From Escherichia phage VpaE1_ev108: DNA of 64,000 bases. The notes below the pieces were generated by a model. That model saw only the letters and a list, made by a program, of their open reading frames with translations. It was not told the origin of the DNA and searched no databases. How positions within the stretch are numbered: the first letter of the stretch is position 1; each line of letters opens with the position of its first letter. The stretch lies in sequence record LR597658; one strand, written 5' to 3'. The position numbers and the translations under genes were made by a program. Shown here in pieces: positions 26,961 through 42,126 of this stretch.

Positions 26961-28133
26961 ATGGCAGTAGGTGAAATTCAAATTAGTGCCTTGCCTCAAG
27001 CATCCTTACCAATTGACCTTAGTGATATCTTCCATCTTAAGCAGGGTATTGAGGATAAGAGGTGTACTCTTGAGCAATTACTTGCTCCACACGCAAGCCT
27101 AAGAAATAACCCTCATGGTGTTACTAAAACACAAATTGGTTTAGATAATGTTATTAATGCTCTTCAGTTAGTCGCTGCAAATAACTTATCAGATATTGTT
27201 AATGTAGCTGAGGCAAGAGCAAATCTACAGATTATGTCTTCAGAAGAGGTTAATAACCTTGTCCAGCAACATATCAAGGACAAGAGTAACCCACACAATA
27301 CAACTAAGGCACAGGTTGGTTTAAGTAATGTTCAGAACTGGACAACATCTAATCTGTATAACGAAGATGCAGATAAGTATGCTACAGCAAGAGCAGTAAA
27401 TAACTTGTACAAGGCTGTTCAGGCTTCTTATCCAGTAGGTACTATCCATCTTTCTATGAACTCTGCAAACCCTTCCACATACTTAATTTGTGGAGGTACT
27501 TGGGAGTTAGTTTCAAAAGGCAGGGCATTGGTTGGCTATGACTCTGATACAAGACCAGCAGGTTCTGTATTTGGCGCTTCAACTGTCACTTTGTCAGTTA
27601 ATAACATGCCTCAGCACTCCCACTCTGTGTCTCTTAGCGGTGGTGGTCACACTCATAATGCAACTGTGTCAATTTCAGCTTTTGATTATGGGACTAAGAC
27701 TACAAACTCTTTTGACTATGGGACAAAAGCTACTAACACAACTGGTAACCATACACACAGTGTGTCAGGTAACACTAGCACCAATGGTACTCACAACCAT
27801 GATGTGTATCCTAGAGAAAATGATGGCACTGGTAATGCTGTGGCTGACTCTAATGGTGGTGGTGCAAGAAGGACATCAAGGACTTCTAGTGATGGTGCGC
27901 ACTCACACAGCTTTAACGTCACATCTGGTGCATCAGGTGACCACAGCCACACGGTTGGTATTGGTGCTCACAGTCATACAGTTGGTATTGGTTCACATAC
28001 GCATAGTGGCACTGTAACAGTTTCTTCTTCTGAACATACACATAGTGGCAATACAAATAGTGTTGGTGGAGGTCAGGCAGTTAATATTGAACAGCCATCC
28101 TTCGTACTGTATGTATGGCAGAGAACAGCTTAA
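26961..28133 (+). CDS. tail fiber protein with His-box (HxH) repeats
   Basis: 390 aa; C-terminal repeats HSHSVSLSGGGHTHN, GNHTHSVSGNTSTNGTHNHD, AHSHSF, DHSHTVGIGAHSHTVGIGSHTHSG; ends WQRTA. Confidence 0.8.
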   Translation: MAVGEIQISALPQASLPIDLSDIFHLKQGIEDKRCTLEQLLAPHASLRNNPHGVTKTQIGLDNVINALQLVAANNLSDIVNVAEARANLQIMSSEEVNNLVQQHIKDKSNPHNTTKAQVGLSNVQNWTTSNLYNEDADKYATARAVNNLYKAVQASYPVGTIHLSMNSANPSTYLICGGTWELVSKGRALVGYDSDTRPAGSVFGASTVTLSVNNMPQHSHSVSLSGGGHTHNATVSISAFDYGTKTTNSFDYGTKATNTTGNHTHSVSGNTSTNGTHNHDVYPRENDGTGNAVADSNGGGARRTSRTSSDGAHSHSFNVTSGASGDHSHTVGIGAHSHTVGIGSHTHSGTVTVSSSEHTHSGNTNSVGGGQAVNIEQPSFVLYVWQRTA

Positions 28134-28143
28134 TTTCTTTACA

Positions 28144-28165
28144 GGGGCTTTATAGCCCCTTTTAA
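28144..28165 (+). terminator. rho-independent terminator (short T-tract)
   Basis: aggggct-ttat-agcccct followed by tttt. Confidence 0.55.
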
Positions 28166-28179
28166 GAGGAAAATTTATA

Positions 28180-30531
28180 ATGGCAGATTACAAATTGAGT
28201 GAGCTAAACTCAATCGACACAATCCGTTCAGATGACCTTCTTCATGTCAGAGTTAAAAAGAGACCTGAAATGCTGGGTGATGAAGACCGTCGAATGACCT
28301 ATCAAGATTTCTTAACATCTTTTAAGCTTGAAAGATTTGTTCAGATTGCTGGTAGCACTATGACGGGTGACTTAGGAATTGTTAAGCTACTTTACGGTGG
28401 CAAGGCTGTATTCGACCCCACAGGCTCTTCTGAGATTACTGTTGGTGATGTTTTAAAGACTTTTAAAATCAACGCAAACGGCCTTAAACTAACTATTGCA
28501 GACGCTTCAAGGTCGGCAACTGTTTATCATACTTTGAATAAGCCAAGCCCTAATGAACTTGGGATGAGAACTAATGAAGAGAATGACGCAAGGTATGCAA
28601 GACTAGCCGTGAATAATACCTTTAGAGGTACTCAAGCTATCCTCTCTGACAATGAAGCGCTCATTATTAAAAATATCACTCAAGGTGCTCCACTCTATCT
28701 TCGTGGTCAAGATGCAGATGGTACTAACAGATGGTATCTAGGTAATGATAATAGGGGTACAAATAATCTTGTATTGAAGAATGTAAAGTCTGACGTTTCA
28801 ATTGCTATTTTAGAGAATTTGGTGACAGTCAACAGAACTCTTCAAATTGCTGGCCAAGTTCAGCCTTCAAGTTTTGCTAACTTAGATGCTAGGTATTTTA
28901 CCCAGACAGCAGCTAATCAGAGATTTGCGCAGTTAGCTGGCAATAATACATTTAGTGGTTCTAATATTTTCACTAATTTTGTTATTAAGAAGAATGCTAA
29001 TGCTATTACTATTCAAAATGTAGATACAACTGCGGCTTTGTATATCCAAGCAAGGAAATCAGATGGAACTAATAAGTGGTACATTGGTAATGATGGTGAT
29101 GAAAACATTGTAAACATCTATAACTATTTAGCAAAAACACAAATCTCATTAGGTAACACCATTACCATGAGCAGAACAGTCCAAATTGGTGGTCAAGTAC
29201 AACCTTCTGATTGGACTAACATTGATTCTAGATATATTCCGGCAGCCACTTTGAGTAATCTCCCTAAACTTAATGTGTCTAATACTTTTACAAATGTGCA
29301 AACTATTGTATCTAACAACGAGGGTTTGGTATTAAGGAACTTGACACAGGGGCAGCCACTATATATCCGTGGTGTTGATACTGAGAATGTTTCTAGATGG
29401 TGGTTAGGTGTAGGTGGTCCAAACTCTAATGTGGTAACACTTAACAACAACTATTCTGACACTAAAATCTCACTTGGTGGCTCATCAGTAATGACTAATA
29501 AGAGCTTAGCTATTACTGGTCAAGTACAACCTTCTGACTTCTCTAACTTAGATGCTAGATACTATACCCAATCTGCCGCAAACGCAAGGTATATGCTTGC
29601 AAGTATCACTGGTACAGCTTCTGAAAAGGATGGTGATGGTGTTGCATGGGATGCAAAAACAGGTCTTTATAAGGTTACTAACACCACTGGACAGTCTTCT
29701 TCACTTGTATATCACATGTTTTTAGGGACTAGTTCTACACCATCTGCACAATTAAAGTTTTCGTTTAAAAATGGTGGGATGTGGTATAGAACATCAAGAG
29801 ATGCCTATGGCTTCGAAGTTAATTGGTCTAAAGTTTACACGGAAGCACAAAAACCAACCCCTTCAGAGATTGGTGCATACACTAAAGCTGAAACTGACCA
29901 GAAAATTGCAACAGCAATTAGTGACTCTACAGACCTTAACAAAATCTATCCAGTTGGTATTGTAACGTGGTTTAACAGTAATGTTAACCCTAATACAGCA
30001 CTCCCTGGTCTAACTTGGACGTACCTGAATAATGGTGTTGGTAGAACTATCAGAATCGCAGCAGCAAACGGTTCAGATGTTGCTACAACTGGTGGTTCAG
30101 ATTCTGTGACATTAGCTGTTGGTAACTTACCATCACACACTCACAGTTTCTCTGCTACCACTTCATCTTTTGATTATGGTACGAAGAACACTAACAGTAC
30201 TGGTGCACATACCCATTCAGTTAGTGGTACTGCTGCATCTGCTGGGCAACACGCACACAGAATTTCACAGGGTGACAACGCTAACGTTTCATCAGGTAGA
30301 GTCGCATCTTCAAACTCTGCTCAGACCCATGTTGGTTGGACTGAAAATGATGGTGTTCACACCCACTCAGTTAGTGGTACTGCTGCATCTGCTGGTGGAC
30401 ATGCTCACTCTGTAGGTATTGGTGCTCACAGCCACACAGTTAGTGGTAACACTGGTGGTACAGGTTCTGGTTCAGCATTTAGTGTTACTAACCAGTTCTA
30501 CAAGTTAATGGCTTGGGTAAGAACTGCTTAA
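28180..30531 (+). CDS. long tail fiber protein with His-box repeats
   Basis: 783 aa; internal repeated QIAGQVQPS(S/D)F motifs; C-terminal HSFSATTSSFDYGTKNTNSTGAHTHSVSG / GHAHSVGIGAHSHTVSG; ends WVRTA like the upstream fiber. Confidence 0.85.
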   Translation: MADYKLSELNSIDTIRSDDLLHVRVKKRPEMLGDEDRRMTYQDFLTSFKLERFVQIAGSTMTGDLGIVKLLYGGKAVFDPTGSSEITVGDVLKTFKINANGLKLTIADASRSATVYHTLNKPSPNELGMRTNEENDARYARLAVNNTFRGTQAILSDNEALIIKNITQGAPLYLRGQDADGTNRWYLGNDNRGTNNLVLKNVKSDVSIAILENLVTVNRTLQIAGQVQPSSFANLDARYFTQTAANQRFAQLAGNNTFSGSNIFTNFVIKKNANAITIQNVDTTAALYIQARKSDGTNKWYIGNDGDENIVNIYNYLAKTQISLGNTITMSRTVQIGGQVQPSDWTNIDSRYIPAATLSNLPKLNVSNTFTNVQTIVSNNEGLVLRNLTQGQPLYIRGVDTENVSRWWLGVGGPNSNVVTLNNNYSDTKISLGGSSVMTNKSLAITGQVQPSDFSNLDARYYTQSAANARYMLASITGTASEKDGDGVAWDAKTGLYKVTNTTGQSSSLVYHMFLGTSSTPSAQLKFSFKNGGMWYRTSRDAYGFEVNWSKVYTEAQKPTPSEIGAYTKAETDQKIATAISDSTDLNKIYPVGIVTWFNSNVNPNTALPGLTWTYLNNGVGRTIRIAAANGSDVATTGGSDSVTLAVGNLPSHTHSFSATTSSFDYGTKNTNSTGAHTHSVSGTAASAGQHAHRISQGDNANVSSGRVASSNSAQTHVGWTENDGVHTHSVSGTAASAGGHAHSVGIGAHSHTVSGNTGGTGSGSAFSVTNQFYKLMAWVRTA

Positions 30532-36518: not shown

Positions 36519-36674
36519 CAACTTTTATAAAAAAGTTCTGATAGCTATATGCGTCACGAAACAAAAGATTGTAAACAAGACACCCATTGCAAAAGATGTG
36601 TCCAAAAGCTTACTTGCAACGTATGACAATACAAAGACAACCAGTATAAATAGAATGACTGTACTGAACATAGT

Positions 36675-37775
36675 TTACTCATAATCCCTAATAACTAGCC
36701 CTACAGGAAACTGTAAAGAACCTTTACGAGTCATCTTCTGGAACTGAACAGTTAAAGGTTTCCCGATAAACTCTTCAGGATGTTCAGCAAGATACTGTTT
36801 CTTCTCGTGTGTAGTTTTCCATGAAACATCTACAAAGACGTTAGGAAGAGTCTCTACAACGAACTTGCCATGACCACGCTTATCGGTCTTTACACCAGTC
36901 ACTTTAAACTCTTCAGTGTGCATCTTCTTGTGCTTAATCAAGAAGTATGAACGGTGACAACACTCATAGAAGGAGTCTTCAGAGATTGAACGGTACATTG
37001 CACCTTCAAACTTAGCTTCAACCCACTTATCATGAGCTTCATCAAACTCTTCCCAAGAATTTACACGGATAGTCTGTACAGGAACCACTCTACAGGTATC
37101 CCCAATCTCAACAATGGGTGAGTTATCAATAACTTCACGACGCTCAGGCCAAGATTTTGAATTGTCACAGATATCATACCAGTAGAATTTAAGAAGGTGA
37201 CGGTCTGGATTGTCAGCATTCTTAATCATAGAGACAATATCTTCTAAGTCCCAACCATGAGCATAAATCTCACCATCAAAGTCTTCAACTTGTGGATGTA
37301 ATTTAAGCAACAAAAGCAAATCTGGAATTAGTTCTGCTGGAACGTTGTAAACAGTATTCTCACGAGAATAAGCTGTGAAGCTAACTGAATCAGCATCTCT
37401 TGAAATTCTACAACGAACACCATCAAGTTTTGGTTGAGCATCAGCAGGAAATTTCAAATACTTTGCATGACTAACCTTTGCAGCATCATGAGCAAGCTGT
37501 ACACCTACCTTCTCAGTATTCTGTGCAGACTCTTTTGTGTAAGCATAACCTTTACGGTCAACTTGCTTTTTATACTTAGCAGCAACTTCAAAGAGGGCTT
37601 GCTGTTCAGCATTACGCTCATTCTTTTTACCGATGTTTTTAGGCTCTGCTGTATACTCTTCAAACATCATCTTGCCATTTTCTTTACCGTAGGTTGTAAT
37701 AACTTTGTCACCTACAGCAACGCATGACCAGACGTTGAAAGAGCCATCTTTATTTTGTTTGTACAGAATTGTCAT
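36675..37775 (-). CDS. ATP-dependent DNA ligase
   Basis: 366 aa; adenylation motif I KLDGVRC (KxDG). Confidence 0.8.
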   Translation of the reverse strand: MTILYKQNKDGSFNVWSCVAVGDKVITTYGKENGKMMFEEYTAEPKNIGKKNERNAEQQALFEVAAKYKKQVDRKGYAYTKESAQNTEKVGVQLAHDAAKVSHAKYLKFPADAQPKLDGVRCRISRDADSVSFTAYSRENTVYNVPAELIPDLLLLLKLHPQVEDFDGEIYAHGWDLEDIVSMIKNADNPDRHLLKFYWYDICDNSKSWPERREVIDNSPIVEIGDTCRVVPVQTIRVNSWEEFDEAHDKWVEAKFEGAMYRSISEDSFYECCHRSYFLIKHKKMHTEEFKVTGVKTDKRGHGKFVVETLPNVFVDVSWKTTHEKKQYLAEHPEEFIGKPLTVQFQKMTRKGSLQFPVGLVIRDYE

Positions 37776-37978
37776 TTTCTCTTACCACCAATCTCTACGT
37801 CGATAACTTGAACATCGCCAGCAACATCAAACTTATGTATGATGCTTTCCACAGTATAAGTCCAACCATCAATGCGAACCATCTCACCTTCTCGTGGAAC
37901 TATTGGATTACGTTGAGCTACAGTTGTAGTGGAGTGAACAACATCATAACGATAGATATAGTTTACTAATACTTCCAT
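37772..37978 (-). CDS. hypothetical small protein
   Basis: track ORF 37772..38077 overlaps the lipoprotein gene; internal ATG at 37978 with RBS gaggt gives 68 aa without overlap. Confidence 0.45.
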   Translation of the reverse strand: MEVLVNYIYRYDVVHSTTTVAQRNPIVPREGEMVRIDGWTYTVESIIHKFDVAGDVQVIDVEIGGKRK

Positions 37979-37988
37979 CGTTAAAACC

Positions 37989-38246
37989 TCACTCAATAAC
38001 CGTAGTATGTGATTGACCATTTTTGCCATAGCTATAAGATGTTGTTGTTTGAGAGTTTGGGCATCTGACAACAACAATATCTCTGCTTATAGCATCACCA
38101 TTGAGTTTGTAGATTTTGCAGTCTTGCATCTCTGGAGGGAGGCTGTAAGAAGCATCTTTGTTTTCATAAGATGGGTTGCAGCCAGCCAGAAAAATTACTC
38201 CAAGTGCAACCATTGCTTTCACACAACTCTTAACCTTATTGTTCAC
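37989..38246 (-). CDS. small lipoprotein (superinfection-exclusion candidate)
   Basis: 85 aa; signal peptide and lipobox VIFLAGC; two further Cys in mature part. Confidence 0.65.
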   Translation of the reverse strand: MNNKVKSCVKAMVALGVIFLAGCNPSYENKDASYSLPPEMQDCKIYKLNGDAISRDIVVVRCPNSQTTTSYSYGKNGQSHTTVIE

Positions 38247-38378
38247 GATAGTCTACCTCTCTGTATGTTTTTAAATAGTGAGTGATGAGTTCTGGTAATT
38301 CACTACGTTTAACGTTTGAACGAAGAAGTGTCCAGTCAAAACCTTTACCAACCCTTCCCCAGAGACTGTACATTTTCT

Positions 38379-38612
38379 TCATAGCAACTCCAGAATATCA
38401 ATACGTTCGCCTTTGAGTACTCCAGTACGGTCTTTTGCAATCTTACCGTCAACGATAAGGATGTGTGTAGACCTTAAAGCATCGTTGTTAAAGGTTTTTA
38501 CGAACTTGCTAGGCATGACTACAATGGACATCTCCTGAATTAACTCTGGAGTGTAGCAGTTATCATGAAGTTGCTGAATAACGTCTGCAAGTGTCATTTT
38601 TGATGTCTCCAA
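38379..38612 (-). CDS. hypothetical protein
   Basis: 77-aa ORF. Confidence 0.5.
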   Translation of the reverse strand: METSKMTLADVIQQLHDNCYTPELIQEMSIVVMPSKFVKTFNNDALRSTHILIVDGKIAKDRTGVLKGERIDILELL

Positions 38613-38854: not shown

Positions 38855-39370
38855 TCAACTTAGTTTTGCAAACTCTCCGTGGAGTTTAATAGCAGCTTCA
38901 CAGTAAGCTTTATGGGCTTCTTCTTCTGTTGTGTATGTTCCTATATGTATGGTCTTGCCATTATGGTTAATCTGGGCTATCCACTTACCAGACTTGCTTC
39001 TACTTGTGCCTTTTAAGTTTTTTGATGTTCTAGGTTGTCTCCTATTAGACATGTTCTGCTCTTTTGTGGCCTCTCTTAGATTGTCCCAAGCGTTATTCAA
39101 ACCATCTCCATCTTTGTGGTCAATGTGTTTATCAGGCCACTTACCTGTCATCCAGAACCAAGCAATTCGGTGATTGCCTGTCCTGTATCCTAAAATCTGT
39201 GTGTGCATATACACACCAGACCTTGTGCGCTTAATTGCTCCGGCTTGGCTTCCAATAACCACCCTACTACTATGTGGAGGTCTGCCAATCCATGTTAAGA
39301 CCCCTGTTTCGGGGTCATAATCTAACCAAGACTTTAACTGTTCATGTGTGAATCCACAATCTCTCATCAA
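38855..39370 (-). CDS. HNH homing endonuclease
   Basis: 171 aa; HIDHKDGDGLNNAWDNLREATKEQN; paralogous to 61126..61617; sits immediately after the polymerase gene. Confidence 0.75.
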   Translation of the reverse strand: MMRDCGFTHEQLKSWLDYDPETGVLTWIGRPPHSSRVVIGSQAGAIKRTRSGVYMHTQILGYRTGNHRIAWFWMTGKWPDKHIDHKDGDGLNNAWDNLREATKEQNMSNRRQPRTSKNLKGTSRSKSGKWIAQINHNGKTIHIGTYTTEEEAHKAYCEAAIKLHGEFAKLS

Positions 39371-42066
39371 TGCACCTCATACCAGCTCTTACCAACCTTA
39401 CCTGTGCCAGTTACAAGCGTCTCACTCTTCAAACCTAAATTCTTAGATGCCTGACCATACATCCAGTCAGTTATGGCTTTAACTTCTTGAGTCATACTTT
39501 CTGGGCATTCCCAACTGTTTTCATCGTGGTATGCCAGCAAAAGCCTAGCACCGATTGCTGGTTTTCGTCCATTTAATTTTGTCAACCCTTCTTCACATGC
39601 TCTTCTACAAGCAAGGTTAATTGCCTCATTTTGAATCTGAGCCTCCGAACCCATAAGCAAATAATTCAATAACTTATGTGGAGATTTACACCACAACCAA
39701 GCTCCAGCAACCTTTACGAAGCCCCCTTTAGAGATTGCAGCGGTCTTACCAAACACCTCTTCAAGTGCCTTTTTAGTTGCTTTGTAGTCAGCTTCCAAGT
39801 CATCTAGCAGCTTCTTAATTTTAGGCAAACGAATAAAGTAAGTCTGTTTAGTCAGTGCACCTTCCTGAGTAGTTGCAGCTTTAATCGTCTTAGCAAACTT
39901 CTCATCACCTGCACCGAACAGCAGTGCATAGATACCATTCTTAGCTTTCTTACGGCCTTTGCTAATCTCATGGAGAAGGTTCTCATCCTGAGTAGCTCGA
40001 CAAGTCAAGATATCCTGCTCATCATTCAAGCTAAAGTAAATACTGTTCAATGTATGTGCATCAGTCCCTGAATAGACAACGTACAGGTCATTCTCAGAGT
40101 CATAGCGAAGGTACTTATCAATCTCTGGGTTCAGGTACTCATCAAAATGTTTGCAGTAATAGCGTCCATCTTCTTGACGAATGAACTCAATTTCTTCTTT
40201 ACCTTGCGTTACCGCTTTGGTGAAGTCTTTATCACCCATAAAGTTACAAAGAAGAACTAGCTGGGCTGAGTTCATATCTACAGAGACAACGTTAGTACCT
40301 TCCTCACAAATCCATACTGCCCTCATTGGTTCTCCATAGACAGCAGCACCAGACGGTACGTTTACAATACCATACTGTGTCATACGTCCAGTTGAAGTAC
40401 CAAACACCATTGCACCAGCACTAAGGCGACCATCAGGACGAATCTGGTTAAGCCAACCTTTTTCATCATCCTTTGAGTTCTCAATAGTTCTGCGTCGGTG
40501 CATCAAAGTATAGTACTTAGCAATCTTCTGTCCAAGCTCACCTTCAATCGTATCATAAGATGATTCAGTAAGTTTTGGTGAAGTACGGATTAAGCAAGGT
40601 TCAAGCAAATCTGTGTATTTCTTCACAGACCAGTTATGCTCGATGTACTGTACACCTTCATGTTCAACATAACTCAAACCACACCGCTCAACCATTTCCT
40701 GCCACTTAGGATGCTTTGTAATCATCTTTTTATTGTCTTTGAAACGACAAACTTTGACAGGGCGACCATCTGAGTCTTTCTTGTAATTCCAGTCATCTGG
40801 AACCCAACCAACTGATTTCAAGTAGTCTTTAACAACTGCTACCTGAGTCATACGAGAAACTTCAAACTCAATTGGTGTATATGGCGCATCAATCAAACCT
40901 GTGTAGCGACTTGACTCAAGTTCAAAGTGGTTAACAACGTGGCTGTTATAGTACTTCACAGTTTTGACTGTTTTTACTGGTTTCCAGTCTTTGCATTTCT
41001 TACCAATCTTTGCGTTCAACTCATTGCAAATTGCACGAGCATCCTTCATTGCTACAAAACCCTCCTTGTACTCTTCACCAGTTACAGAGTTGGTTGGCGT
41101 ATAGCAATTTCTCTTTTCAATGTTAAAAATCTTTGTAGTTGGCTTACCAAATGGTTTGATTTCGTATGTCTGCATCTCACCATTACGTACCTGCTGACGA
41201 TACTTTGTCTTAGGGTACTTGGTAATTCTTTTCAGTCCATCTGCATGACCAAATGTTTCAACATACTCATTCCAAGCTTTTGCAAACTCTTCTCCAGTGA
41301 CTTTACCTTTGGTCTTAATAGTTGGAGGTAGATGTGGTTCAACCTCTGAAGCAAGCTCATTAGTCAACTTGTCAAGCTCCTTTACATGGAACTCCATAAG
41401 CTCTTTATCAGCTTTCCAACCATTGATAGCTTGTTGACTCATCCAGAAAGATGTTTCTTTAGCTCGCATGTAAGTTTCATAAGTGTCTATACCACACTTC
41501 TTAAGCTTGAGATACTCGTTATCAAGTGCCCGTTTAGTTTTGGCGTTAATACGTATATCTTCTACAACACGAGTGAAGATTTCTGCATTCCACACACCCC
41601 AATGCTCAATCTCTGGTTTACGAACACCAACACGAGCACCCCATGCAGCCAAACCATGAGCACCTTTATAGCCCTTTGGAGTTGGTCTATCCATCCACTG
41701 AACACGAGACTGGATAAGAGAATCCTGAAAGAAATTACTCCACGGTTTACACTTTGGATTATCAAAGTTCCATAAATCAGGTGCAATGTGATTGAAAACC
41801 CACCAGTCATAACCGAGACCATTATGGATGCAAAGACGTTTTGCCTTTAACGCAAACTCAATACCTTCACGTAAGCCACCCTTAATGTACTTGGTATACT
41901 TGTGACCGAGGATAGGCTCATCTGTAAAGACCCATACAGGCGGCTCTTCATCGTCAGATTTATAGTCTGCGAAAGCCATTACGTGCACTTTAGTGAACTC
42001 AAGGAGTAAACCATCAGTTTCTGTATCACCAACTAAATGTAAGTTTTTAAAATCTACGTTTTCCAT
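39367..42066 (-). CDS. DNA polymerase, family A, with 3'-5' exonuclease domain
   Basis: Exo I VGDTETDG; motif A SVDMNSAQLVLL; motif B RKKAKNGIYALLFGAG; motif C LLAYHDE; likely start is M11 (ATG ending 42066) after RBS gagggag; track ORF extends to 42096. Confidence 0.85.
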   Translation of the reverse strand: MENVDFKNLHLVGDTETDGLLLEFTKVHVMAFADYKSDDEEPPVWVFTDEPILGHKYTKYIKGGLREGIEFALKAKRLCIHNGLGYDWWVFNHIAPDLWNFDNPKCKPWSNFFQDSLIQSRVQWMDRPTPKGYKGAHGLAAWGARVGVRKPEIEHWGVWNAEIFTRVVEDIRINAKTKRALDNEYLKLKKCGIDTYETYMRAKETSFWMSQQAINGWKADKELMEFHVKELDKLTNELASEVEPHLPPTIKTKGKVTGEEFAKAWNEYVETFGHADGLKRITKYPKTKYRQQVRNGEMQTYEIKPFGKPTTKIFNIEKRNCYTPTNSVTGEEYKEGFVAMKDARAICNELNAKIGKKCKDWKPVKTVKTVKYYNSHVVNHFELESSRYTGLIDAPYTPIEFEVSRMTQVAVVKDYLKSVGWVPDDWNYKKDSDGRPVKVCRFKDNKKMITKHPKWQEMVERCGLSYVEHEGVQYIEHNWSVKKYTDLLEPCLIRTSPKLTESSYDTIEGELGQKIAKYYTLMHRRRTIENSKDDEKGWLNQIRPDGRLSAGAMVFGTSTGRMTQYGIVNVPSGAAVYGEPMRAVWICEEGTNVVSVDMNSAQLVLLCNFMGDKDFTKAVTQGKEEIEFIRQEDGRYYCKHFDEYLNPEIDKYLRYDSENDLYVVYSGTDAHTLNSIYFSLNDEQDILTCRATQDENLLHEISKGRKKAKNGIYALLFGAGDEKFAKTIKAATTQEGALTKQTYFIRLPKIKKLLDDLEADYKATKKALEEVFGKTAAISKGGFVKVAGAWLWCKSPHKLLNYLLMGSEAQIQNEAINLACRRACEEGLTKLNGRKPAIGARLLLAYHDENSWECPESMTQEVKAITDWMYGQASKNLGLKSETLVTGTGKVGKSWYEVH

Positions 42067-42126
42067 TTTTACTCCCTCTAAAATCATTAACCTCATACAT
42101 TACTGCAAAAAATTATAAAAAGCAAG

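Follow-up and report, generated by a model that had tools for sequence, protein, structure and literature searches.

What does a small lipoprotein do for a lytic phage when its gene lies among the replication genes? The question is raised by an open reading frame (ORF) on the minus strand, at positions 37989..38246, of a 64,000-nucleotide (nt) stretch of Escherichia phage VpaE1_ev108 (sequence record LR597658), hereafter called the window. A preliminary description of this DNA had presented the product as a small early lipoprotein and as a candidate for superinfection exclusion. Our analysis leaves little doubt that the ORF, probably co-transcribed with the replication block, is a true gene under selection in a Felix O1-like lytic phage, and that its product, a beta-rich member of the DUF4884/phrog_902 family, leaves the cytoplasm as a lipoprotein that is processed by signal peptidase II and receives its lipid at Cys23. 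With regard to function, we tentatively favour a protection of the infected cell envelope that does not depend on the phage receptor.

The ORF was read directly from the window sequence. It opens with a GTG codon, and the complete coding sequence (CDS), including the stop codon, occupies 37989..38246 (-) and encodes a precursor of 85 amino acids (aa) that is identical to Felix O1 ORF91 (Felix01p170). The precursor consists of a signal part, MNNKVKSCVKAMVALGVIFLAGC, and a mature part, NPSYENKDASYSLPPEMQDCKIYKLNGDAISRDIVVVRCPNSQTTTSYSYGKNGQSHTTVIE, and a GAGG Shine-Dalgarno sequence is located 9 nt 5' of the start (38256..38259, -). The signal peptide covers residues 1-22 (38181..38246, -), with K4, K6 and K10 in the n-region and a hydrophobic core of about 11 residues, A11-A21, and AlphaFold2 (AF2) predicts a helix from residue 4 to 20. 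It ends in the lipobox L20-A21-G22-C23 (38178..38189, -), recognised by its sequence pattern and its conservation in the family, where Cys23 is predicted to become the lipidated residue 1 of the mature protein, with Asn next to it at +2. The protein thus combines the features of a lipoprotein, namely a charged n-region, an h-region, and a lipobox of the form [LVI][ASTVI][GAS]C whose Cys falls at about position 15-35. When a PROSITE-style pattern was applied from every start codon in all six frames, this ORF was the only credible lipoprotein in the 64-kb window, and the three remaining pattern matches were antisense noise ORFs. The residue after the lipid Cys steers the sorting of lipoproteins, and in Enterobacteria Asp at +2 predicts retention in the inner membrane; the Asn at +2 predicts that the window protein is sorted to the outer membrane.

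The 85-aa ORF with a signal peptide and an LAGC lipobox, as first described, was thus confirmed by the sequence, the six-frame scan and the conservation in the family. The two additional cysteines that had been claimed are those of the mature protein, C43 and C62, whereas the precursor contains four in total, since C8 in the signal peptide has to be counted together with C23. A second GTG, at codon 9 (38220..38222, -), lies by comparison near the ATG of Bas63, Moogle and most relatives (MWK...), and the lipoprotein signal is retained, and was detected in the scan, with either start. The start differs between lineages, with a GTG and eight extra N-terminal residues in the Felix O1 type and an ATG (MWK...) in Bas63 and Moogle. 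One variant in the family (P0006) opens with MKKMYSLWG, as does the 48-aa ORF upstream of the window gene, which suggests a fusion with that ORF. Two other sequences (P0002 and P0003) have a 46-residue N-terminal extension, and these may be gene-calling artefacts.

The protein belongs to a large family. It matches phrog_902 in PHROGs (E = 2.9e-18, residues 2-83), and all homologues in a large protein collection, one of them 96% identical to the window protein, carry a precomputed annotation as PF16225 (DUF4884). The local Pfam copy returned PF16225 for no family member; membership in DUF4884 is taken from the precomputed annotation and PHROGs, and the version numbers of another model differ between the two Pfam sources. 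Scans of the window protein against Pfam, NCBIfam and PADLOC gave no match, and the other family members yielded only signal-peptide or sub-threshold noise in the local Pfam (Zn_ribbon_InsA, LPAM_1, Lysis_col, LysC). A zinc-ribbon (InsA) reading was rejected, as the weak matches were taken as chance hits from the string RCPN, and a periplasmic disulfide is likelier than a metal site.

A profile of 119 members recovered 1,222 clusters (50% identity) at E <= 1e-3 and 707 at E <= 1e-10, with sizes of 71-154 aa for the 150 clusters listed of the 1,222. Of 252 fetched proteins, which comprise family members and close relatives of the window protein, 239 contain a strict lipobox and most of the others a near-lipobox, and 211 of the 239 have exactly two further cysteines. 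In the alignment of 119 sequences, C23, C43 and P63 are invariant, and D42, R61, C62, N64, G74 and K75 are conserved in at least 90%. The alignment places these residues in two motifs. The first conserved Cys lies in L36-P-P-E-M-Q-D-C43-K-I-Y46 (38109..38141, -), with the family form LP.E..DC.IY, and the second, together with the invariant Pro63, in V59-V-R-C62-P-N-S-Q-T-T-T-S-Y-S-Y-G-K75 (38022..38072, -), with the family form VVRCPN..T.T.Y..GK.

Members of the family were found in the Ounavirinae, in the Vequintavirinae and their relatives (4MG, CR3, phiTE), in 350-kb jumbo coliphages and their Erwinia and Yersinia relatives, in Vibrio Demerecviridae of about 100 kb, in Acinetobacter phages of 100-110 kb and in the T4-like phage Acj61. 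T4-like Aeromonas phages, including Aeh1, have predicted lipoproteins that resemble the family in structure. None of the contigs of the best 120 clusters is longer than about 356 kb, and since all of these are phage-sized, lytic phages and not bacterial chromosomes appear to be the carriers of this branch of the family. In every context seen, the gene is located among early host-takeover and replication genes. The window gene itself is already catalogued, its product being the same as that of Felix O1 and assigned to a named DUF; the novelty lies in recognising a very large, uniform and unstudied family of lytic-phage lipoproteins with a genomic logic unlike that of the known exclusion lipoproteins.

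Some members have neighbours of their own interest. In the jumbo coliphage fEgEco12, a second, unrelated Cys-rich lipoprotein (LTAC-NDD..., 91 aa) is encoded two genes downstream of the DUF4884 gene (L020 3075..3350), and both are labelled 'lytic conversion lipoprotein' in the record. In phage 4MG (L003 2735..3896), genes for membrane proteins stand on both sides of the DUF4884 gene. One product is an 81-aa single-span protein labelled 'Rz-like spanin'; the other, of 215 aa, has several hydrophobic segments and a charged tail rich in Lys, Glu and Ala, and the trio may represent a small envelope-directed gene cluster. Turkey3 contains an ORF of the same length as the second lipoprotein gene of fEgEco12, at the matching position (L005 3620..3895), known by its length and position only.

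The gene evolves under strong constraint. The window protein is 100% identical to its counterparts in Alf5 from E. coli and in Felix O1 and Mushroom from Salmonella, and the region encoding the mature part differs from that of Felix O1 by nine synonymous and no non-synonymous substitutions. The ratio of non-synonymous to synonymous divergence (dN/dS) was 0.06-0.10 both in the comparison with Bas63 and for the Mooglevirus pair ESh20 and Moogle; against the Mooglevirus phages, dN was only 0.05-0.08 while dS was saturated. The gene is annotated in Felix O1 (ORF91), Alf5 (ORF091c), Mushroom (gp42), Bas63 (bas63_0042) and Moogle (gp40), in all cases as a hypothetical protein, and these annotations together with the purifying selection show that it is not a chance ORF. 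The tail fibres present a different picture. Two tail-fibre proteins of the window share 67-78% identity with those of Mushroom and have rearranged repeats, so that an identical lipoprotein occurs together with divergent fibres and different hosts. We conclude that the lipoprotein does not track the host-recognition apparatus. The tail-fibre genes (26961..30531, +) are also about 7.5 kb away and on the opposite strand, with genes for thymidylate synthase, dihydrofolate reductase, DNA ligase and others in between.

The position of the gene is likewise stable. Throughout the Ounavirinae it occupies a fixed slot on one strand, consisting of the polymerase gene, often an HNH endonuclease gene, a few small ORFs, the lipoprotein gene, one or two small ORFs and the ligase gene. 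In the window, the minus-strand block contains the genes for DNA polymerase (a single 909-aa ORF, 39367..42096, -) and the HNH endonuclease, four small ORFs including the lipoprotein gene, one further small ORF and the gene for DNA ligase (36675..37775, -). The stop codon of the upstream neighbour, which encodes a soluble protein of 48 aa (phrog_2381; 38236..38382, -), overlaps the lipoprotein start by 11 nt, and the downstream neighbour, for a soluble protein of 68 aa (phrog_4427; 37772..37978, -), begins 10 nt after the lipoprotein stop. The overlap and the short gap place the lipoprotein gene in a tightly packed operon; both neighbours are operon context and not demonstrated partners. A scan for promoters and terminators around the gene gave no signal above the shuffled expectation, which makes transcription together with the neighbouring replication genes most likely, and the lipoprotein gene is probably co-transcribed with the polymerase-ligase block. 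The location in an early minus-strand block, as first proposed, holds for the position among the polymerase and ligase genes, whereas the early (or middle) timing of expression is deduced from that position only.

The predicted structure is consistent with a small domain close to the membrane. An AF2 model of the mature part (residues 23-85, 63 aa; 37992..38180, -), computed with the family alignment, contains five beta strands in an all-beta domain with a mean pLDDT (predicted local distance difference test) of 74.6 and a pTM (predicted template modelling score) of 0.52, and the run on the full-length protein was poorer. The first predicted strand begins 3-4 residues after the lipid Cys, and family-wide only 10-12 residues separate this Cys from the first conserved motif. 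Given this spacing, the domain should sit against the membrane surface. The model thus suggests a compact, beta-rich domain of about 60 residues in which C43 and C62 probably form a stabilising disulfide, and which a tether of no more than about 10 residues joins to the membrane. Searching the PDB by sequence and by profile gave no match to a solved chain beyond the signal peptide, and there was no informative fold match to solved structures, with neither Llp chain among the matches listed.

How could such a protein serve the phage? In the mechanism that we favour, the lipoprotein, once processed by signal peptidase II and carrying its lipid on Cys23, is held near the membrane by its short tether. 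There, at the periplasmic face, the mature domain would bind some conserved component of the envelope, and not a phage-specific receptor, and the bound lipoprotein would shield the envelope of the infected cell against attack by secondary phages whatever receptor these use. The protection would take the form of exclusion after adsorption or of resistance to lysis from without. A conserved envelope target is preferred over a phage-specific receptor because the domain is nearly invariant across phages with different fibres, receptors and hosts. An exclusion role is preferred because Llp and Rtp45 serve exclusion and because the T4 protein Spackle (Sp, gene 61.3) provides an example of receptor-independent exclusion in the periplasm. 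In role, the protein would then be comparable to T4 Spackle or Imm without being homologous to either. We regard such receptor-independent protection as a possibility to be held tentatively. The genome of Acj61 offers a weak lead in the same direction, as its DUF4884 gene occupies the slot of T4 sp (p058-p057-61.1-61 at L018 4001..6143, compared with sp-61.2-61.1-61 at L019 936..3052), and no Acinetobacter phage is among the organisms listed for the T4 Sp homologues; the position may point toward an exclusion role.

Receptor inactivation, one of the two activities that the preliminary description had put forward, would make the protein an Llp/Cor/Rtp45-type factor, which binds the outer-membrane receptor of its own phage from the periplasmic side and allosterically keeps the receptor-binding protein from attaching. 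The general design is the same as in Llp and Rtp45, with a small lipoprotein, a predicted outer-membrane anchor, a probable disulfide and a gene in a replication-gene operon, and one jumbo-phage record calls its homologue a 'lytic conversion lipoprotein'. However, the window gene is not located beside the tail-fibre genes, unlike the exclusion genes of T5, Rtp and the Drexlerviridae, which adjoin the receptor-binding gene, and the protein remains identical where the fibres and hosts differ. Felix O1-type phages are reported to recognise the lipopolysaccharide (LPS) core and not a protein receptor, and the match to Llp is limited to the signal peptide (hhalign probability 1.5%), with no fold match. 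A published table lists for Henu8 a DUF4884 protein and, as a separate entry, a Cor protein. With the same domain also present in Vibrio, Acinetobacter and Aeromonas phages, receptor inactivation is unlikely, and a factor of the Llp type has, in our judgement, a very small chance of being correct. An entry block after adsorption, the other proposed activity, is possible. A less remote, if still improbable, explanation is that the lipoprotein inhibits or hijacks a conserved host envelope machine for the benefit of replication and has no role in exclusion, the machines in question being outer-membrane biogenesis, cell-wall remodelling, vesiculation, a stress sensor or an envelope-acting defence. 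The conservation of one domain across hosts and the missing link to receptor genes would fit such a takeover or counter-defence role, as would the confinement to lytic-phage-sized contigs (in the best 120 clusters) and the early genes that surround the family member in the contexts seen. On the other hand, no PADLOC model matches, neither the neighbourhood nor the fold points to a partner or target, and we know of no phage lipoprotein with a role in host takeover or counter-defence that could serve as a precedent.

A role in lysis, whether as an o- or u-spanin or in the control of spanins or the endolysin, would account for an outer-membrane lipoprotein of o-spanin size, and it draws on the spanin label of the 4MG neighbour and on weak sub-threshold Pfam matches of some members to Lysis_col and LysC. 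These matches are mostly N-terminal, cover largely the signal peptide and lipobox, and fall far below the threshold, and the 4MG protein, at 81 aa, is too short for an i-spanin. In the window, neither the 48-aa nor the 68-aa neighbour has a transmembrane segment, the gene lies in a replication operon and not among the late genes, and the hhalign probability against the Mushroom o-spanin is 0.1%. The genus also has its own overlapping i-/o-spanin pair, located near rIIB and pnk at 84161-84671 in Mushroom, in a part of the genome outside the window, and the window lipoprotein is therefore not the o-spanin. The spanin specialists who annotated the Mushroom pair left the DUF4884 gene as hypothetical, and a pair is also described in the Moogle paper. 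A u-spanin was rejected as well, because the C-terminus (...GQSHTTVIE) is hydrophilic and forms no transmembrane domain. We consequently give a lysis role little credence. Finally, the ORF might be dispensable or non-functional, with a fortuitous lipobox. The small hypothetical ORFs of the block do vary, and the window lacks one that is present in Felix O1; however, the strong purifying selection, the lipobox Cys and both other cysteines that are invariant or nearly so in 119 sequences, and the constant position throughout the Ounavirinae make this explanation barely credible.

Several observations weigh against the receptor-independent protection that we favour. About 20% of the lipobox proteins (47 of 239), including the homologues in E. 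coli jumbo phages (C-D-A), have Asp at +2, which predicts retention in the inner membrane, and the family may hence not act at one particular membrane. The structure model is of moderate confidence only and found no informative fold match, and the conserved motifs could be structural instead of forming a binding surface. Across six unrelated genomic contexts no neighbour or partner gene was constant, and the literature contains no function or experiment for any DUF4884 member, the name appearing in two tables only, those of a T1-like phage and of Bacteroides BT_3183. Nor is the lead from Acj61 extended by Aeh1, which has no gene between 41 and 61.1 and no family member in its first 50 kb, so that the Acj61 slot is a single case in a plastic region.

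The remaining features of the locus concern its variation among relatives. The HNH-AP2 homing endonuclease gene (38855..39370, -; HNH_3, 1.3e-14; AP2, 2e-9) overlaps the final 4 nt of the DNA polymerase gene. HNH endonuclease genes of differing size are found at the same spot in relatives, and there is none in Moogle. The DNA polymerase of Mushroom is annotated as two CDS about 380 base pairs (bp) apart (L007 25365..28375), as opposed to the single ORF in the window. The small ORF that is missing from the window (Alf5 ORF089c/Felix01p166, about 193 bp) lies between the ligase gene and the 68-aa ORF in Felix O1, Alf5 and Mushroom, whereas in the window the 68-aa ORF directly abuts the ligase start (37772..37978, compared with L001 3278..3672 and L002 1751..2172). 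Phage LNA1 matches the window in one piece and thus has the same arrangement without ORF089c. Directly downstream of the ligase gene, a very hydrophobic 48-aa ORF with two likely membrane spans, MFSTVILFILVVFVLSYVASKLLDTSFAMGVLFTIFCFVTHIAIRTFL, is located at 36525..36671 (-); it is a hypothetical protein in Alf5 (L001 2026..2172) and represents a further small membrane protein of the same minus-strand block. The window as a whole was assigned to Felixounavirus, with 97.7% nucleotide identity to Alf5 over the lipoprotein region and matches to 258 phage records. Among the records that match the Felix O1-type region or protein are some named as Staphylococcus and Campylobacter phages, such as the 43-kb Campylobacter phage A126, and these are probably mislabelled or contaminated.

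What makes the window gene interesting is the family and not this copy, which is an ordinary member that had been annotated before and whose product is the same as that of Felix O1. Few phage proteins are known to work on the outer membrane from inside; small lipoproteins are among them, and the two solved cases, Llp-FhuA and Rtp45-LptDE, each revealed an unexpected control of an outer-membrane machine. The DUF4884 family is highly conserved and, with at least 1,222 clusters, far larger and wider than either. In a broader and distinctly speculative version of the idea, to which we assign a low probability, the family would be a pan-Gram-negative, receptor-independent phage weapon that docks from the periplasm on a conserved envelope machine (for example Bam, Lpt, Lol or a cell-wall enzyme) and either seals the cell against later phages or redirects envelope biogenesis. 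If the target is indeed a conserved envelope component, it would point to a broadly exploitable weak spot of Gram-negative bacteria and would explain a core gene of the Felix O1-type phages, which serve in the diagnosis and biocontrol of Salmonella. If the protein mediates cross-exclusion, this would bear on the design of phage cocktails.

How, then, does the family compare with the systems that are known? It shares with the o-spanins (Rz1-like), including that of the Felix O1 group, the nature of a small outer-membrane lipoprotein from a phage of Gram-negative hosts, and differs from them in its replication-block location, in the absence of an adjacent i-spanin gene and in sequence, as the hhalign result for the Mushroom o-spanin demonstrates. 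T5 Llp and Rtp45 are closer in kind. According to published accounts, these early non-spanin lipoproteins of lytic phages are characterised as superinfection-exclusion factors, which bears out the general statement in the preliminary description. T5 Llp (8a60_B, 7qjf_A) resembles the DUF4884 protein as a small lytic-phage lipoprotein whose mature domain, about 60 residues long, is beta-rich and has conserved cysteines; for both, predictions place the protein at the inner leaflet of the outer membrane and its synthesis ahead of the late genes. However, the family profile matches Llp in the PDB copy over the signal peptide only, the window gene neither adjoins nor co-varies with a receptor-binding gene, and the Felix O1 receptor is reported to be LPS and not a FhuA-like protein.

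Rtp45/Cor of the Drexlerviridae (Rtp45-LptDE, 9RPS) is likewise a periplasmic lipoprotein, of about 6 kDa and with one disulfide, and Rtp45 acts at the periplasmic face of an outer-membrane machine. The DUF4884 profile gave a signal-peptide match only against the PDB copy, in which the presence of the Rtp45 chain of 9RPS was not checked. The exclusion genes of T5, Rtp and the Drexlerviridae adjoin the receptor-binding gene, and those of the Rtp45/Cor type vary with the receptor, unlike the DUF4884 gene, which does neither. In pSf-1, a Hanrivervirus relative of Henu8, the gene for a 76-aa Cor-like lipoprotein is located two genes past the 3.4-kb pSf1_0082, here taken as the tail-fibre gene though recorded as hypothetical; this phage gave no match to the DUF4884 profile and contained only the Cor-like lipoprotein and a u-spanin. 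In the unverified table for Henu8 (Hanrivervirus), by comparison, the separate Cor protein is placed near the tail-fibre gene and the DUF4884 protein elsewhere in the genome.

The last comparison is with T4 Spackle. The two proteins differ in sequence, with an hhalign probability of 1.9% and a hidden Markov model match to the signal peptide only. Spackle has an ordinary, non-lipoprotein signal peptide and a helical structure. Yet, like the DUF4884 lipoprotein, it is a small exported early protein that is encoded among replication genes, and its receptor-independent mode of action would fit the distribution of the DUF4884 family across phages and hosts.

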